Notes: a model not told the origin generated them from the letters alone. Numbered from the stretch's first letter, positions 20,853-33,116 are shown. The stretch is 37,174 bases of DNA from a virus (IMGVR_UViG_2671181127_000013:1-37174); one strand, 5' to 3'. Translations and numbers: made by a program.

Positions 20853-22586
20853 ATGATCCAGGATGTCTTTATTCGTATGCGGGCGAAACAGCTTTACTGG
20901 CAGGGGTATACCCCGGCGGATATCGCTCAGCTGATGGGAATAAACCAGAACACGATTTATTCGTGGAAAAAACGCGATGAGTGGGATGCCACTCCCCCGA
21001 TCCAGCGGGTCACCCAGTCCATTGATGCACGCCTGATACAGCTCACCGCCAAACCGGATAAAAGCGGCGGTGACTTTAAGGAAATTGACCTGCTGACGCG
21101 CCAGCTGAAAAAACTGAATGACGGTCAGGGAGAACAGGCTGTTTCCGGTAAGAAGCCCCGCAGGCGCAAACTGAAAAATCACTTCACCGAAGAGCAGATT
21201 GTCGCACTCAGGGAAAAAATCCTGCCGTCACTGGCCTGGCATCAGCGCGAATGGTACGACAACCGCCATCACCGCAACCGCATGATCCTGAAGTCGCGTC
21301 AGATTGGTGCGACCTGGTATTTTGCGCGCGAAGCACTCCTTGATGCACTGCGTGATGATGTCTCCGCCGGGTACCAGCGCAACCAGATATTTTTGTCCGC
21401 ATCCCGTCGCCAGGCGTATCAGTTCAAACACTTTATTCAGCAGGCGGCGCTGGAAGTTGATGTCGAACTGAAAGGGGGTGACAAGATTGTTTTGTCTAAC
21501 GGTGCAGAGCTTCACTTCCTTGGCACATCGGCAGCAACCGCTCAGTCGTATACCGGACACCTTAAATTTGATGAATTTTTCTGGGTCAGTAATTTTGTGC
21601 AGTTGCGAAAGGTGGCTGGCGCAATGGCGACCCTGAAAGGGCTTACCCGTACCTACTTTTCAACGCCATCGGGTGAAACGCATGAAGCTTATCAGTTCTG
21701 GACGGGGGATCGCTGGAACAGTGAGCGTCCCCGCTCAAAACGCACTGAATTCGATGTGTCTCATTCGAACCTGAAAGGGGGCGTGCTCTTCCCGGATAAA
21801 ACATGGCGGCAGATTGTCACCATTGAGGATGCAGTCGCGAACGGGTGGGAATATACGAGCATTGACGATATCCGGGATGAAAACACCGAAAGCGAATTTC
21901 GTAACCTGTACATGTGCGAGTTCGTGCGTGATGGTGAGGCGGCGTTCAGTCTGAATGCGCTGATCGGCTGTGGTGTGGATGGATACGACGAATGGCCTGA
22001 CTGGAAACCTTTTGCTGCGCGTCCGATGGGCGTGCGGGAAGTCTGGCTCGGGTACGACGCCAACGGCAGCAGCGGGAAGGGGGACTGCGGGGCGCTGTCG
22101 GTCTGCGTACCTCCACGGGTTACAGGCGGTCGTTTTCGTACCGTGGAGACGGTCAGGGTGCAGGGTATGGAGTTTGAACAGCAGGCGGCCCTGATTGAGG
22201 AATACACCCAAAAATATAACGTGAAACATATCGGCATTGATGTGACCGGCGGGAACGGGGAGGGGGTTTATCAGATTGTGAAAAAGTTTTTCCCGATGGC
22301 CGTACCGTACAACTTCAATATCGCCTCCAAGCGGGCACTGGTCATGAAAATGCTTCAGGTGGTGCGTGCCGGACGCTGGGAGTATGACCGCAGTGAACGT
22401 GACCTGATCCAGGCATTCGCATCGGTGCGAAAAATACAGACACCCGGCGGCTATATCACCTACGACACCGACCGCTCCCGTGGCGTCAGCCATGGTGACC
22501 TCGCCTGGGCAACCATGCTTGCTGTTATCAATGAGCCAATTGGTGCGGAGCGTGAGGATAATCGCGGCTTTGCAATGGAGTTCTGA
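20853..22586 (+). CDS. P: Terminase large (ATPase) subunit P
   Basis: About 577 aa, divergent from O as in P2; start at ATG 20853 with AGGGGG SD. Confidence 0.85.
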   Translation: MIQDVFIRMRAKQLYWQGYTPADIAQLMGINQNTIYSWKKRDEWDATPPIQRVTQSIDARLIQLTAKPDKSGGDFKEIDLLTRQLKKLNDGQGEQAVSGKKPRRRKLKNHFTEEQIVALREKILPSLAWHQREWYDNRHHRNRMILKSRQIGATWYFAREALLDALRDDVSAGYQRNQIFLSASRRQAYQFKHFIQQAALEVDVELKGGDKIVLSNGAELHFLGTSAATAQSYTGHLKFDEFFWVSNFVQLRKVAGAMATLKGLTRTYFSTPSGETHEAYQFWTGDRWNSERPRSKRTEFDVSHSNLKGGVLFPDKTWRQIVTIEDAVANGWEYTSIDDIRDENTESEFRNLYMCEFVRDGEAAFSLNALIGCGVDGYDEWPDWKPFAARPMGVREVWLGYDANGSSGKGDCGALSVCVPPRVTGGRFRTVETVRVQGMEFEQQAALIEEYTQKYNVKHIGIDVTGGNGEGVYQIVKKFFPMAVPYNFNIASKRALVMKMLQVVRAGRWEYDRSERDLIQAFASVRKIQTPGGYITYDTDRSRGVSHGDLAWATMLAVINEPIGAEREDNRGFAMEF

Positions 22587-22591
22587 ACACA

Positions 22592-23635
22592 ATGAGTAAA
22601 CGCAAAAAATACACCGGAAAGCGGGGGCAGGATTCGCTACACGATGCACTGAAATCAACGCCTGCACTCAGCGCATTCACCTTTGATGGGCCCTATGAAG
22701 TCAGCCGCATGGATCTCCTGGATAACATGTCATGTGCAGATAACGGGCGCTACTTTGATACCCCCATGGACTGGAACGCTATCGCCCGTGCATCCCGTCG
22801 TGCGTCCTGGCATCAGTCGGCTTTGTACTTCAAGCGCAACGCCCTGAACGGGTGCTTTGTTCCTCACCCTCTGCTGTCCCGCCAGGCGTTTTCAGCGTTT
22901 GCGCTCGACTGGTTTGTGTTTGGTAATGCCTATCTTGAAGTGCGGCGTAACAGGCTGGGGGAACCACTCCTGCTTCGCCCGGCACTGGCAAAATATACAC
23001 GCAGGGGAAGTGACCTGGATACCTACTGGTATCTCAACGACGACGGTACGGAGTTCAGTTTCAGGAAAGGGACTGTGTGCCACGTGCTTAATCCTGATAT
23101 TAATCAGGAGATCTACGGGATGCCGGAATATATCGGCGGGTTGCTGTCTGTCAGCCTGTCAAACTCAGCGGATACATTCCGCAAACTCTACTACGATAAC
23201 GGCTCGCATGCCGGGTGTATTATCTATGTAGGCACATCTCAGGCGAATGCGGAAAGTGTCGAGGCCATTAAAAAAACGCTTACGGATTCCCGTGGTCGCG
23301 GGGCGTTTAAAAACCTGTTTCTACATGCACCGGGTGGTGGCAAGGATGGTGTGCAAATACTGCCGTTCCAGCAGATAACCGCAAAGGATGAATTCCTGAA
23401 CATCAAGGGGAGCGCCCGCGACGATATCCTTGCTGCCCATCGTGTACCACCTCAACTGATGGGGGCAATGCCTGACGGGAATGCGGCGTTTGGTGACGTT
23501 GAAAAAGCGGCGAGAGTGTTTTTCATCAACGAGTTGCAACCTGTCATGGAGGCCATGAAGCATGTCAATGAATGGCTTGGCGTTGAGGTGATGCGCTTTA
23601 ACCCCTATGCCCTGCTTCTGGATAACGCCAGCTGA
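22592..23635 (+). CDS. Q: Portal (capsid vertex) protein Q
   Basis: 347 aa following P; gpQ-like size and position next to cos. Confidence 0.85.
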   Translation: MSKRKKYTGKRGQDSLHDALKSTPALSAFTFDGPYEVSRMDLLDNMSCADNGRYFDTPMDWNAIARASRRASWHQSALYFKRNALNGCFVPHPLLSRQAFSAFALDWFVFGNAYLEVRRNRLGEPLLLRPALAKYTRRGSDLDTYWYLNDDGTEFSFRKGTVCHVLNPDINQEIYGMPEYIGGLLSVSLSNSADTFRKLYYDNGSHAGCIIYVGTSQANAESVEAIKKTLTDSRGRGAFKNLFLHAPGGGKDGVQILPFQQITAKDEFLNIKGSARDDILAAHRVPPQLMGAMPDGNAAFGDVEKAARVFFINELQPVMEAMKHVNEWLGVEVMRFNPYALLLDNAS

Positions 23636-23663
23636 CGCGCTTCGCTTGTCTGCTGCTTCGCCG

Positions 23664-23685
23664 GGGCATAAAAAATTTATGCCCC
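23664..23685. terminator. Palindromic hairpin between convergent Q and the 167-aa gene, in the expected cos region
   Basis: GGGGCAT-AAAAATTT-ATGCCCC inverted repeat; no clean U-run, so terminator function is uncertain. Confidence 0.35.
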
Positions 23686-23700
23686 GACTCTCCAGCTCTC

Positions 23701-24204
23701 TTAACGGAATGCGGATGGCGTTCTTCTTTGCAGCTTGCTGATAATATGCATCTTCATACTGTTTACTATCGGCAGCCATTCCCTGTCACCGTCTCCGTTG
23801 ATGACCACGCGAATGGAGGTATCATCTTCCACGCGAACCCGAAGAGATACACCGTCTTTTCCGACGGAATGTAACTCCATTGCCAGGACTATGTTTACCG
23901 ACTCTCCTTCATCGTGTGAGTCAACCCATGTTCTTACAGCCATCCGGAATATGTTATCTGTGTCGGTTGCAATCATATTTACCGGAAATGGCCTGAAGTC
24001 CCGATCGTTTCTGCACGGAAACCCCGTATCAACGTAACGATGATGCTCGCCGTCTTTGTCTTCCCATGTCTCTGAAGGCAATTCCAGCCACTGCTCATAA
24101 AAAGCAACCAGCTTTTCAGCCTGATTGCGCAGAATCCCTGTAACCTCCCGCCTCGCGTCCCGGCTCTTTTTGTTTGCCAGGTACAAATCGCGAAAATGGC
24201 TCAT
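23701..24204 (-). CDS. Hypothetical protein (167 aa), cos-proximal accessory gene
   Basis: Clean ORF with no family I recognise; sits where P2 carries old. Confidence 0.5.
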   Translation of the reverse strand: MSHFRDLYLANKKSRDARREVTGILRNQAEKLVAFYEQWLELPSETWEDKDGEHHRYVDTGFPCRNDRDFRPFPVNMIATDTDNIFRMAVRTWVDSHDEGESVNIVLAMELHSVGKDGVSLRVRVEDDTSIRVVINGDGDREWLPIVNSMKMHIISKLQRRTPSAFR

Positions 24205-24704
24205 GTCGCTCTCCTTTGGTCTGTTTATGCCAGCCTGTATTCTGCGCTCACCTCATATTGTGCGCAAGTTTTCACCCGTGAATGACTGATACTTTAAATT
24301 CTATTAACTTTATGATTTCAGTGATTTTTGTCTCTCTTTTTTATCCCGTTCGTCACGTCCGTTTCCCTCCCGATCTCCGACCTCGCCAGACGCAATCAGA
24401 CGCATTCTGACGGCCTGTTTCCCTGACCATGTTTTGATGTGGTTTTTCAAAACTGACTTTACTGCGTGCGTATCACGCGCCATACGACCCCAAATAAAGC
24501 AACCCGCCTTCCATCCCTCAATTCGGGCGCCCTTCCCTCGTCGCCTGCGCGCAGCGATCGCCTCGTTTTTCGTGCACCGTGCAAAGTGGCTTCAGCCAGC
24601 GCCGTTACTGGGCTGAAAGGGTAAAAAACACATAAGAAAAATTGTGCAATTTCGTGCACTTTTGTGCGGTTTTCCAGGTGGTGTTTATGCGGGAATCGCA
24701 GGCT

Positions 24705-24734
24705 AAAAAAAGCATGAGCGGGGATTGCCCCCGC
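24705..24734 (-). terminator. Rho-independent terminator of the two-gene module
   Basis: Minus-strand GCGGGG-loop-CCCCGC hairpin just after the stop at 24740, followed by a T7 run. Confidence 0.5.
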
Positions 24735-24739
24735 GATAT

Positions 24740-25117
24740 TCATGCCGCCCGATGAGCTTCACCTACTGACGGGTCTATTATGATTTCAAAATCCGTGAAC
24801 AACGCTTTCGGCTGTACGCAGTTACCTTGTTTTTCCAGGCTGACAAAGCCGTATCGACTCAGCATTTTTAACGTTGCTGACAAATTACTTAACTGCCTTC
24901 CTGAAAGACTGGCAAGTTCTGTCATTGTCTGCGGTTTTTCCGCATCCATGATACGCAGAAGCGCGATATTTTCGTTGCTCAGCGCCTGACCCAGAGCGTT
25001 CAGAGATGAAAACCAGACTCGCGGTTCGTCAGGTTCTGGTTTTAGTTTCCCTTTGGCTATATCCAGCATTCTCTGGCGAAGGACTTTCTCCGGGATAATG
25101 CCGATACGGGCTTTCAT
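24740..25117 (-). CDS. Winged-HTH DNA-binding protein (125 aa), second gene of two-gene module
   Basis: TMTELASLSGRQLSNLSATLKMLSRYGFVSL is a typical wHTH recognition segment; start overlaps upstream stop (ATGA). Confidence 0.6.
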   Translation of the reverse strand: MKARIGIIPEKVLRQRMLDIAKGKLKPEPDEPRVWFSSLNALGQALSNENIALLRIMDAEKPQTMTELASLSGRQLSNLSATLKMLSRYGFVSLEKQGNCVQPKALFTDFEIIIDPSVGEAHRAA

Positions 25118-25488
25118 TTCTTCCCCCTTTGCTGTTCAGCAATCACTCTGTCTACATGGTTAAAGAAATCCAGTAAAAGCTGTTCCGCAGAAGTGAATTC
25201 ATATGGATAGCCTTTATCGGACGATGTTCTGTGAATATGGTCATAAACGGTAATGCGCCCGGTAAATTTCCCTTTCTTTGGTGGCTTTATTCCGTGAGCG
25301 TTATCCATTCCAAAAACCCGGGAGTTATAAGGATCGTGCAATGTCAGGTTGTAGCGTATTCCATGTGGTCTGAACTGGCTTGGGCTAACCCTGTATGCTT
25401 CAATCTTCCACCAGTAACCATTATCCATGTGGTGCTGGTATCCATGCATATCCAGAAGGGTGTTCAGCCCATGATCATTGTTTTTCAT
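25114..25488 (-). CDS. Hypothetical His/Tyr/Trp-rich protein (124 aa), first gene of two-gene module
   Basis: Clean ORF translationally coupled to the wHTH gene; preceded by an AT-rich intergenic region; family not recognised. Confidence 0.55.
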   Translation of the reverse strand: MKNNDHGLNTLLDMHGYQHHMDNGYWWKIEAYRVSPSQFRPHGIRYNLTLHDPYNSRVFGMDNAHGIKPPKKGKFTGRITVYDHIHRTSSDKGYPYEFTSAEQLLLDFFNHVDRVIAEQQRGKK

Positions 25489-25671
25489 AACTGATTCGTA
25501 TCACCTTACTTATGACCAAATCATAACATCGTTTTTTTCTTTATCAAGGTGGGTTATTGTGCTGTTCTTGTGGTTATCGACGTTAACTTATGTACATATT
25601 TGAATTCGTAGTGGTTAATATGAAAAAAGTGTCTGACGAATTTGACGGCTTCTGAATACGTAAAACTGTGT

Positions 25672-25703
25672 CAGGCGGAGTATGTTTCTCCGCCTTTTTG
25701 TTT
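25672..25703. terminator. Hairpin plus T-run between the SSB-like gene and the two-gene module
   Basis: GGCGGAG-TATGTTT-CTCCGCC followed by TTTTTGTTT on the plus strand; orientation ambiguous. Confidence 0.4.
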
Positions 25704-25742
25704 GTGCCAGCCCGGCGTCTCACATCATTACTCACATATTGA

Positions 25743-26060
25743 TCATATTGCGGTTCTTGAGCTGATAATGCTTTGTGCCAGCAACTGCCAGCCTTCTTTC
25801 ATCTGTCCGTATTTGTCCTGATATCTGTTTACCTGCAAGTTCCCGTGCACCTGTACCAGGTCGCCTTTTTTGTGTTTTGCCAGTTCTTCGTGCTGCTTCC
25901 CGAATGCGATAAGGTAAAGCCACATTGTGGTTGACTGTTCTGCGCCATGGCCGGGCAGTGATATCGCCAGTCGTGCAGCTGTTACATCGGTGCCTCTGGA
26001 TGATTTTCTTGTCGTCGGGTCTTCCGCCAGTCGTCCCCGTGTTGCAATCTGCGTTGTCAT
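25743..26060 (-). CDS. SSB-like OB-fold protein (105 aa)
   Basis: Pattern L..DP..R......V...RLA.S.........W....AFGK.AE....KKGD.V.V.G.L....Y.DK.G parallels E. coli SSB OB-fold core; start at ATG 26060 with GGAGA SD. Confidence 0.5.
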   Translation of the reverse strand: MTTQIATRGRLAEDPTTRKSSRGTDVTAARLAISLPGHGAEQSTTMWLYLIAFGKQHEELAKHKKGDLVQVHGNLQVNRYQDKYGQMKEGWQLLAQSIISSRTAI

Positions 26061-31911: not shown

Positions 31912-32892
31912 TCACGTACTGGCAGGGGTAAACATCACGCTGTAAGTTGCATCTCCCGTCACAGGTCCGCAGTCCGGGCAGTAGCCACCGCCATAGTGAC
32001 CGCAGGCGTTGCACTGTCTCAGGGTGGCGATAACTTCCGGTGCTGGTTCGCGGGTTCTTGCTCCAACGCTTCGTGGTGCCTGTATGCAGTTCATCCGGTA
32101 ACCCCGATAAATGCGTCTGGTTTCCGGTGTGTCGGAATTGGAGATGGTGATTCTGGTCATGCCGCCCGTTTCCTGCGAAAGGCGGTCAAGTGCTGCCCTC
32201 AGGCGAACGTGCTCGTGTTCATCGAATGGTTTTCCGTAGGCGGTGAAATTGCCCTCGCCACTGAACCGCAGGTAAGGGGGATCGCAGTACACGCAAAGCG
32301 TGTTGCCCATGCCGAACAGGTGACTGGCAGAGCTCAGCGTATCCTTAAAATCTGCGTGGATAAGCAGCGTTTGGGTGCTGTTTGCCTTGTCTGCAAATGC
32401 GCGGATTTCCCGCTCAGGGAAGTAGGGTTTTCGGTAGCCGCCGAAAGGCACGTTAAAATCACCTTTTCCGTTCACCCGGTACAGGCCATTAAAACAGTGC
32501 CGGTTGAGGTACAAAAACATGGCGGCCAGTCGCAGTTCACGGCGGTCGCTTATTCCCGTTCTGCTACTCAGGAAGGCATGATTCTCTGCGTTAAAGGTTT
32601 CGCGAATGATGAGATAGTCACCCCTGTTGTTGTGGTTCAGGAACAGGGTTTTCGCCTCGTCGATCAGACTGTCGGTGTTGTCCCGTGCTGCCCGCCAGAA
32701 ATTAATCAGCGCACCATTGGAATCACCCAGGATGTAACGCTTGTAACTGGTGTTCATGAATACCGATGCGCCACCCACGAACGGTTCAACCAGGCAGTCA
32801 GCTTCTGGCAGATGCGCCTTCAGTGTGTTCATGATGCGGCTTTTGCCACCCACCCATTTCAGCGGTGTGCCGGATAACAGTTCTTTGCTCAT
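31912..32892 (-). CDS. DNA adenine N6-methyltransferase (Dam/D12 class) with C-terminal Cys-rich extension
   Basis: LKWVGGK N-terminal motif and DPPY catalytic motif; C-terminal CNACGHYGGGYCPDCG. Confidence 0.85.
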   Translation of the reverse strand: MSKELLSGTPLKWVGGKSRIMNTLKAHLPEADCLVEPFVGGASVFMNTSYKRYILGDSNGALINFWRAARDNTDSLIDEAKTLFLNHNNRGDYLIIRETFNAENHAFLSSRTGISDRRELRLAAMFLYLNRHCFNGLYRVNGKGDFNVPFGGYRKPYFPEREIRAFADKANSTQTLLIHADFKDTLSSASHLFGMGNTLCVYCDPPYLRFSGEGNFTAYGKPFDEHEHVRLRAALDRLSQETGGMTRITISNSDTPETRRIYRGYRMNCIQAPRSVGARTREPAPEVIATLRQCNACGHYGGGYCPDCGPVTGDATYSVMFTPAST

Positions 32893-33116
32893 AACGCGGC
32901 CTCTTTGTTATAGGTTTCGTGCGTTAATAAATCCCATGACTTCCCGTTGTTTTTGCTCAGTAATCGCCAGCGAAAACCGATTCTTATTACCAGGTAGTCG
33001 TGGGGTTTTATACGTGAAAAATTCCGCACGCCGTCGCGGAATAAACGCAGCGATGCGCGGGCTTTTCTTTCCACGTTCAGGGGGGGGCAGCAACACACAT
33101 TCAGGATGGCGGCCAT
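32889..33116 (-). CDS. Hypothetical protein (75 aa)
   Basis: ORF coupled to the downstream methyltransferase. Confidence 0.35.
   Translation of the reverse strand: MAAILNVCCCPPLNVERKARASLRLFRDGVRNFSRIKPHDYLVIRIGFRWRLLSKNNGKSWDLLTHETYNKEAAL

Follow-up and report, generated by a model that had tools for sequence, protein, structure and literature searches.

What is the small two-gene unit that sits beside cos in a P2-like prophage of Escherichia coli, and what does it do for its carrier? The prophage is contained in the sequence IMGVR_UViG_2671181127_000013, which was analysed over its whole length of 37,174 nt (the window), and E. coli strain LZSFT34, in which the prophage lies beside dmsA, is 100% identical to the window over the 1.2 kb tested. 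The unit consists of a gene for a 124-residue protein, tumE, and a gene for a 125-residue winged helix-turn-helix protein, the tumA-like partner. An original prediction had taken the two genes for an independently regulated, toxin-antitoxin-like pair placed in a variable region of the prophage. We conclude that the pair is probably a self-contained, autoregulated type II toxin-antitoxin (TA) module of the TumE-TumA superfamily, carried as exchangeable cos-proximal cargo between ssb/gpA and the portal gene. What the prophage gains could be the exclusion of competing phages by abortive infection or prophage addiction, and we hold either of these only tentatively.

The identity of the 124-residue protein is the key to this reading. 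Its RefSeq (PGAP) record, WP_042109431.1, is named "toxin-antitoxin system TumE family protein", and older records use "DUF6516 family protein". The partner, WP_042109432.1, is named "HVO_A0114 family putative DNA-binding protein". The original prediction did not recognise the 124-residue protein as a member of a known family. This was wrong, since the protein is a TumE of the DUF6516/PF20126 family and was already annotated as such. Our own scans of the protein against Pfam, NCBIfam, PADLOC and PHROGs gave no significant family, because the local Pfam model PF20126.4, with its 81 positions, misses the enterobacterial subfamily. Among the 120 homologues listed (48-85% identity), all but three truncated entries have PF20126.5 as a precomputed annotation, and a profile search of 1.84 billion representatives found 1012 members of the TumE family at E <= 1e-3. 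Residues P41, H42, G43, Y46, T49, H51, R57, G60, D62, N63, A64, H65, D83, H84, H86 and Y96 are at least 80% conserved in 120 family members with 32-54% identity to the prophage protein, and N63 is conserved in all of them. Thus the "His/Tyr/Trp-rich" look that had drawn attention to the protein is, in part, the conserved core of its family. The cluster formed by H42, H51, R57, D62, N63, H65, D83, H84 and H86 suggests a metal-dependent hydrolase, possibly a ribonuclease (RNase), and these candidate catalytic residues are equally present in the members that pass the Pfam TumE model. The fold is alpha+beta, with two helices packed on an antiparallel sheet, and has no confident match in the PDB. 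We found no sequence or fold relationship between TumE and the RelE/HigB, MqsR and HicA folds.

The TumE-TumA superfamily was defined by Durairaj et al. (Nature 2023, PMC10584680) as bicistronic pairs in which the DUF6516 protein has a small alpha+beta fold without a relative in the PDB. The validated pairs, all of subcluster 1a, come from Thioploca, Thiothrix, Crenothrix, Methylotuvimicrobium, an Ectothiorhodospiraceae bacterium and Allochromatium; the six TumE toxins halted the growth of E. coli, and the cognate TumA rescued it (PMC10584680). For the TumE of Allochromatium tepidum, inhibition of 35S-Met incorporation was reported, and RNase activity was proposed, not proven (PMC10584680). 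The pair of the window resembles these systems in its toxin homology, with the motifs PHG..Y.LTLH, R..G.DNAH and DH.H, in the small alpha+beta fold without PDB relatives, in the bicistronic arrangement with a DNA-binding partner and in the RefSeq name. Unlike the TumE-TumA pairs described so far, it belongs to an enterobacterial subfamily that falls below the older Pfam model, and its setting in a prophage hotspot is new. The idea of a toxin-antitoxin-like pair is supported by the homology of the 124-residue protein to toxins of a validated superfamily. The evidence for a TA mechanism is good at the family level.

The partner scores 61.6 bits against PF25212 (HVO_A0114), for which the cut-off is 27.6. 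Its AlphaFold2 (AF2) model, with a predicted local distance difference test (pLDDT) score of 86, has a winged helix-turn-helix core at residues 48-105, in which residues 76-89 are the predicted recognition helix. An N-terminal strand-helix-strand and a C-terminal strand lie outside the core. The best matches in the PDB are the repressors SmtB, ArsR, CzrA and MarR. The description of the partner as a winged helix-turn-helix protein thus stands, on both the gathering score and the model.

TumE and this partner form a strict unit. We compared 80 loci from Gamma- and Betaproteobacteria, taken as one genome per species, and 35 IMG/VR contigs that encode a relative. In all 80 genome loci and all 35 viral contigs, the winged-helix gene lies directly 3' of tumE on the same strand. 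The two frames overlap by 4 nt in 38 of the 80 genome loci, and in most of the others the junction is between -1 and +11 nt. No third gene accompanies the pair repeatedly: of 410 clusters of neighbouring genes, 351 have a single member, and those that do recur can be traced to synteny within Photorhabdus or within Colwellia. TumE and the partner co-evolve: their pairwise protein distances are correlated with r = 0.85, a value reached in none of 1000 permutations. Even where identity has fallen to about 40%, in plasmid and transposon elements, the two genes remain linked.

The anatomy of the locus is that of an independent transcription unit (Table 1). Both minus-strand reading frames of the original prediction were confirmed together with their ATGA overlap, in which the tumE stop and the tumA start share 4 nt in the context GAAATGAAA. 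Both genes are under purifying selection, with ratios of non-synonymous to synonymous substitution (dN/dS) of 0.05-0.22 against five other copies; tumE differs from that of strain 2013C-3033 by two synonymous and no non-synonymous changes. The 254 bp 5' of tumE (25489-25742) are as AT-rich as had been described: their GC content is 0.382, and that of the whole window 0.539. A value this low is reached in only 0.3% of the 254-nt stretches of the window, and the GC minimum of the window (0.362) lies inside this upstream region. It contains a sigma-70-like promoter (25547-25520, minus) with 10 of 12 matches, a 16-nt spacer and a TG extended -10, located 32 nt 5' of the tumE ATG. We found no convincing open reading frame between promoter and tumE, and a scan of the locus against Rfam gave no match. 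At the other end, the hairpin with its T7 run proved larger than first described. An inner GC stem (24734-24718) widens to a 34-nt hairpin (24745-24712), followed directly by the U7 run (24711-24705). Its stability is -19.3 kcal/mol (z = -3.6), which was equalled in 1 of 200 shuffled sequences. With a promoter, an operator-like palindrome and a terminator of its own, the pair bears out the claim of an independently regulated module. The Shine-Dalgarno-like sequence of tumE has a long spacing of 12 nt to the ATG, and that of tumA lies 2-4 nt before its start codon. The ribosome-binding site of tumA thus appears to be the stronger one, and this asymmetry would favour an excess of the partner.

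The palindrome TTATGAT-TTG-GTCATAA (TTATGATTTGGTCATAA) is the sole such match in the window, and its left arm holds the -10 hexamer. A palindrome with the consensus TTATSAT-N3-ATSATAA is located 18-40 nt 5' of tumE in nearly every locus. At least 11 of its 14 positions are matched in 65 of the 80 genome loci, as compared with 4% of shuffled upstream regions. The viral loci score 10-14 of 14 (n = 35), with at least 11 in 31 of them. Many homologous loci have a TTGAC-like -35 element at the corresponding distance (at least four of six matches in 33/65). There are two classes of half-site. The G-type, TTATGAT...ATCATAA, occurs in Enterobacterales, Vibrio and Alteromonas, and the C-type, TTATCATCnGATGATAA, in Legionella, Xanthomonadales and Betaproteobacteria. 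For residue 81, in the predicted recognition helix, 43 of 45 C-type loci encode Arg, and the G-type loci Val, Asn or Ala, a correlation that is confounded by phylogeny. The palindrome and the residue-81 pattern fit a dimeric repressor that would occlude the -10 element. A second, distal palindrome, TATGTACATA (about 25589-25598), was noticed by eye; we do not claim it as an operator, because the similarity to other TumE-carrying prophages stops near 25580, so that it lies beyond the region common to other carriers.

Based on these features, we propose the following mechanism. Transcription from the single sigma-70 promoter (25547-25520) would give a bicistronic mRNA, with tumE followed by tumA, that ends at the terminator (24745-24705). 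TumE would be the toxin and, by homology with the tested TumE proteins, would arrest growth through a block of translation. The partner would be translated through the ATGA coupling from the stronger ribosome-binding site. A dimer of the partner is predicted to bind the palindrome TTATGATTTGGTCATAA over the -10 element and so to repress the operon. The partner may additionally bind and neutralise TumE, a prediction to which the co-evolution of the two proteins lends indirect support.

This organisation has precedents. In HigBA, MqsRA and HicAB the toxin gene also comes first, and the antitoxin, which is translationally coupled 3' of it, has a DNA-binding domain and represses via a promoter palindrome. 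The putative antitoxin here differs from theirs in being an ArsR/MarR-type winged helix and not an Xre-type helix-turn-helix or zinc protein. AbiE combines a winged-helix antitoxin and autorepressor, AbiEi, with a nucleotidyltransferase toxin, AbiEii, and has a role in abortive infection. Its gene order is opposite to that of the present pair, its toxin is unrelated to TumE, which has no nucleotidyltransferase domain, and PADLOC did not find AbiE at the locus.

We next turn to the place of the module in the prophage. In P2-like phages the interval gpA-gpQ, next to cos, is a hotspot with variable defence cargo (Rousset et al. 2022, PMC9122126). The module lies in this interval, as the P2 old/tin locus does, from gene A to the portal gene Q beside cos, and in both cases the cargo is variable and horizontally exchanged. 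The module has no homology to Old or Tin, PADLOC does not recognise it, and any role in phage exclusion is hypothetical. The comparison with a sister prophage of strain SCU-172 (L082) defines the slot. Here, 24674-25750 is swapped for 670 bp with an unrelated gene for a 178-residue protein, and blastn of the window against L082 gave no match within these limits. Conserved between the two are 22001-23710 (terminase, portal), 24377-24673, and 25751 onward (ssb, a MarR-like gene, gpA); the two segments that flank the slot, 24377-24673 and 25751 onward, are 78-89% conserved. We locate cos by position, from the conserved block 24377-24673 alone, because a P2 cos sequence (GGCGAGGCGGGGAAAGCAC) had no match at three or fewer mismatches. 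Similarity to two other TumE-carrying prophages stops near 25580, so the minimal shared or mobile unit is about 24674-25580.

Of 5426 complete E. coli genomes, 29 contain the cos block of this lineage; six of these have the TumE pair, and other genes take its place in the remainder. In Salmonella, P2-like prophages so divergent that their portal protein has only about 30% identity carry an 83%-identical pair, which is also between gpA and the portal gene. This answers the question of the original prediction whether the pair recurs in the same slot of other P2-like prophages, and the swapping among sister prophages upholds its view of the genes as cargo at the gpA-cos hotspot and not core. Other sister prophages fill the slot with a gene for a DUF4760 protein or for a 235-residue hypothetical protein; with the 178-residue hypothetical protein, these alternative occupants, none of which is found by PADLOC, are candidates for hotspot functions. 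They are single genes on the plus strand, opposite to tumEA (L082 5151-5687, L124 4549-5046 and L125 4203-4910).

A second, independent cargo slot is found on the far side of the cos block, bounded by the stop of the portal gene and by cos (window 23711-24376). It holds a 666-bp insert, as compared with 105 bp in L082, with a 167-residue open reading frame (23701-24204, minus). This frame has no match in Pfam or PADLOC. Several sister prophages have it as WP_000017881.1, and in strain Bongo no such gene is annotated.

Several points weigh against our reading of the pair as a TumE-TumA module. The TumE of the window has no match to the local Pfam model PF20126.4 in hmmscan, even at E = 1, and its membership of the family is therefore by transitive homology. 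Its Salmonella relative (83% identity) has no match to this model at the limit of E <= 0.01, and it is marked just "(weak)". The nuclease chemistry is deduced from conserved residues, and phylogeny confounds the match between half-site class and residue 81. In subcluster 1a the order is mostly antitoxin-first, with DUF6516 3' of a small partner remotely homologous to RelB (PMC10584680), and here the order is toxin-first, with a 125-residue HVO_A0114 winged-helix partner. The synthetic TumA fragments of that study were 289-388 bp (PMC10584680), which implies TumA proteins shorter than this partner. A distant plasmid variant has an additional gene for a 105-residue protein 5' of tumE, and a serine recombinase gene 3'. 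Because of this extra gene, the winged-helix protein may be the regulator alone there, with another protein as antitoxin, and the same might hold in some lineages.

On the side of family membership, a Legionella relative with 58% identity (P0037) passes the local TumE model with 33.9 bits against a cut-off of 23.4. An IncR-plasmid protein with 40% identity (L121; BLASTP E = 1e-24) passes it with 35.6 bits. Since these relatives pass, the enterobacterial subfamily stands at the edge of the older PF20126 model yet is clearly homologous. PF20126.4 also misses P0001 and P0120, and the precomputed PF20126.5 annotates the enterobacterial subfamily. The older model has limited sensitivity at this edge of the family.

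The TA module may serve its carrier in different ways, and other readings of the pair itself have to be weighed. In anti-phage abortive infection, a competing phage would release TumE, for example when a labile antitoxin is lost on the shut-off of host transcription, and translation would stop. This is a biological role that is compatible with a TA mechanism, and a phage-defence role is deduced from position. The pair lies in the gpA-gpQ cos-proximal hotspot, its slot is exchanged between sister prophages, and the pair was captured in the same slot in the divergent Salmonella lineage; a 2026 preprint predicts an antiviral function for 15-32% of the unknown proteins of P2 hotspots. This position is to be set against the absence of any PADLOC model match for TumE and of any DNA or protein match to the pair in the GenBank phage collection (50,697 genomes). 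Neither of the hotspot papers names TumE or DUF6516 as a system, and neither protein accession is listed in the supplementary tables of Rousset et al. The searchable literature gave no link of the pair to phage resistance. The pair is not enriched in defence islands elsewhere: across the 80 other genomes, defence models match only about five of the 139 genes directly beside it, and it is a two-gene islet mostly among housekeeping genes, with a few integrases or resolvases. Plasmids and transposon-like elements carry it as well, and for such carriers addiction is the customary interpretation. Abortive infection is a possible role that we hold only tentatively. Its most specific form, in which the toxin-first TumE/winged-helix subclass is a prophage abortive-infection defence and the toxin, a metal-dependent His/Asp RNase with a new fold, is set free once the antitoxin has been depleted by an incoming phage, is speculative and, taken as a whole, unlikely. 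As an addiction or selfish module, the pair would stabilise a prophage, plasmid or islet by killing the cells that lose it, with no part in phage exclusion. Its presence on 31 plasmids, some of them conjugative, its proximity to serine recombinases and integrases, and its scatter through many Gamma- and Betaproteobacteria among housekeeping genes and without conserved neighbours speak for this role. P2-like prophages, however, are stably integrated and rarely lost, and addiction does not explain why two divergent P2-like lineages have the pair specifically in their defence hotspot. We consider this role, too, to be a tentative one, about as likely as abortive infection.

The pair might instead be a regulator with its regulated enzyme, so that the winged-helix protein only represses and TumE, here non-toxic or conditionally active, is not neutralised by binding. 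The partner does have a full ArsR/MarR-like repressor fold and a conserved operator-like palindrome, the subclass is at the edge of the Pfam model, and the small upstream gene of the distant variant could be the true antitoxin there. Yet the catalytic-looking residues are the same family-wide, including the members that pass the Pfam model, and the gene fusion-like coupling and the r of 0.85 exceed what is expected for a mere regulator. In addition, the extra N- and C-terminal strands of the modelled partner could form a toxin-binding surface. For these reasons we find this alternative improbable. Finally, a location beside cos and the replication genes might suggest conserved P2-like core genes, such as a late regulator or a packaging accessory. 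The distribution refutes this: the pair is in just six of 5426 E. coli genomes and in a minority (6/29) of those with the cos block of the lineage, unrelated genes occupy the slot in sister prophages, and of the 80 homologous loci in other genomes, 78 lack a P2-like neighbour. We reject it as having almost no chance of being correct. An autoregulated TA module of the TumE-TumA superfamily remains our preferred reading.

Table 1. Positions of the TumE module, its signals and the bounds of its slot, numbered along the window
Feature	Position	Strand	Remarks
Variable cargo block with the whole module	24674..25750	minus	blastn against L082
Conserved non-coding block, presumed cos by position	24377..24673		88.6% identity to L082; bounds the cargo slot
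tumE	25114..25488	minus	124 aa; DUF6516/PF20126 TumE-family putative toxin; WP_042109431.1
tumA-like partner	24740..25117	minus	125 aa; HVO_A0114-family winged helix-turn-helix; WP_042109432.1; putative antitoxin and autorepressor
-35 element TTGATA	25542..25547	minus	promoter scan
-10 element TATGAT	25520..25525	minus	within left arm of the operator-like palindrome
Operator-like palindrome TTATGATTTGGTCATAA	25510..25526	minus	predicted binding site of the winged-helix protein
Shine-Dalgarno-like AAGGTGA for tumE	25501..25507	minus	long spacing to ATG; direct sequence reading
Shine-Dalgarno GGGGGAAG for tumA	25120..25127	minus	within 3' end of tumE; direct sequence reading
Intrinsic terminator	24705..24745	minus	hairpin includes the tumA stop codon, then U7
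GC-rich hairpin between ssb stop and tumE promoter	25673..25695		T-run on plus strand

The GC-rich hairpin listed last in Table 1 lies in the AT-rich spacer but is not within the minimal shared module. It has a stability of -16.2 kcal/mol on the plus strand and -14.8 kcal/mol on the minus strand, and its T-run is antisense to tumE-tumA and to ssb. Read from its sequence, it looks like a canonical terminator for plus-strand transcription and at most a weak one on the minus strand. It may be a remnant of an earlier plus-strand cargo gene, or a bidirectional insulator.

Some observations on TumE in other settings may be added. The distant plasmid variant is found in L121 2178-4883 (Enterobacter IncR plasmid pCAV1668-85), in the order of a 105-residue hypothetical protein, a Pfam-positive TumE, an HVO_A0114 winged-helix protein and a large serine recombinase. 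The alphaproteobacterial Brevundimonas plasmid pBH3a (L122) has the same four-gene layout. The consecutive genes of the string overlap by 4 nt or are 2 nt apart, which suggests a recombinase-borne mobile element that contains a TumE module and possibly one component more. CP061233.1 (L123), which PLSDB types as an E. coli plasmid of 1.0 Mb, contains the same P2-like region with the TumE pair and is probably a mis-assigned chromosomal fragment. In the HHpred table of Rousset et al. (PMC9122126), Gene 2 (DUF2290) of the "Helicase+DUF2290" system weakly matches DUF6516 (87.8% probability, E = 2.9), and through this match a hotspot system may be distantly connected with TumE-like domains.

Two other genes of the prophage are worth recording. 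Between the lysis and tail genes, a moron (window 13769-15835, minus) encodes a 688-residue protein with DUF1737, a SASA carbohydrate (sialate O-acetyl) esterase domain and DUF6645, for which PADLOC gave no match. We take this architecture to resemble that of the NanS-p esterases of Stx prophages. In the early region, RefSeq annotates a 61-residue "ParE family toxin-like protein" gene (window about 32889-33074; L001 28299-28484), which overlaps the end of the DNA adenine methylase gene (31912-32892). The Salmonella P2-like prophage L130 has a similar ParE_like gene.

The family, its fold and the TA concept are already published, and the exact proteins are in RefSeq, so that the locus is arguably a sub-variant of TumE-TumA. 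As far as the searchable literature goes, the strict toxin-first TumE/HVO_A0114 unit, its predicted operator and its place in the P2 cos-proximal hotspot, in two divergent lineages, are unpublished. If the role of the partner, the chemistry of TumE and the defence function should bring no surprise, this would be an ordinary, already annotated TA module. TumE is nonetheless among the few toxin families that were found from "dark" AlphaFold clusters, and it has been tested in one subcluster from non-model bacteria. The locus described here provides a member of the family that is native to E. coli, for which a promoter has been mapped and an operator and catalytic residues can be proposed; the prophage slot that holds it is known to be enriched in anti-phage genes. 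It thus makes this toxin family tractable in E. coli and offers a testable defence hypothesis which, if true, would be the first link of the TumE family to phage immunity.

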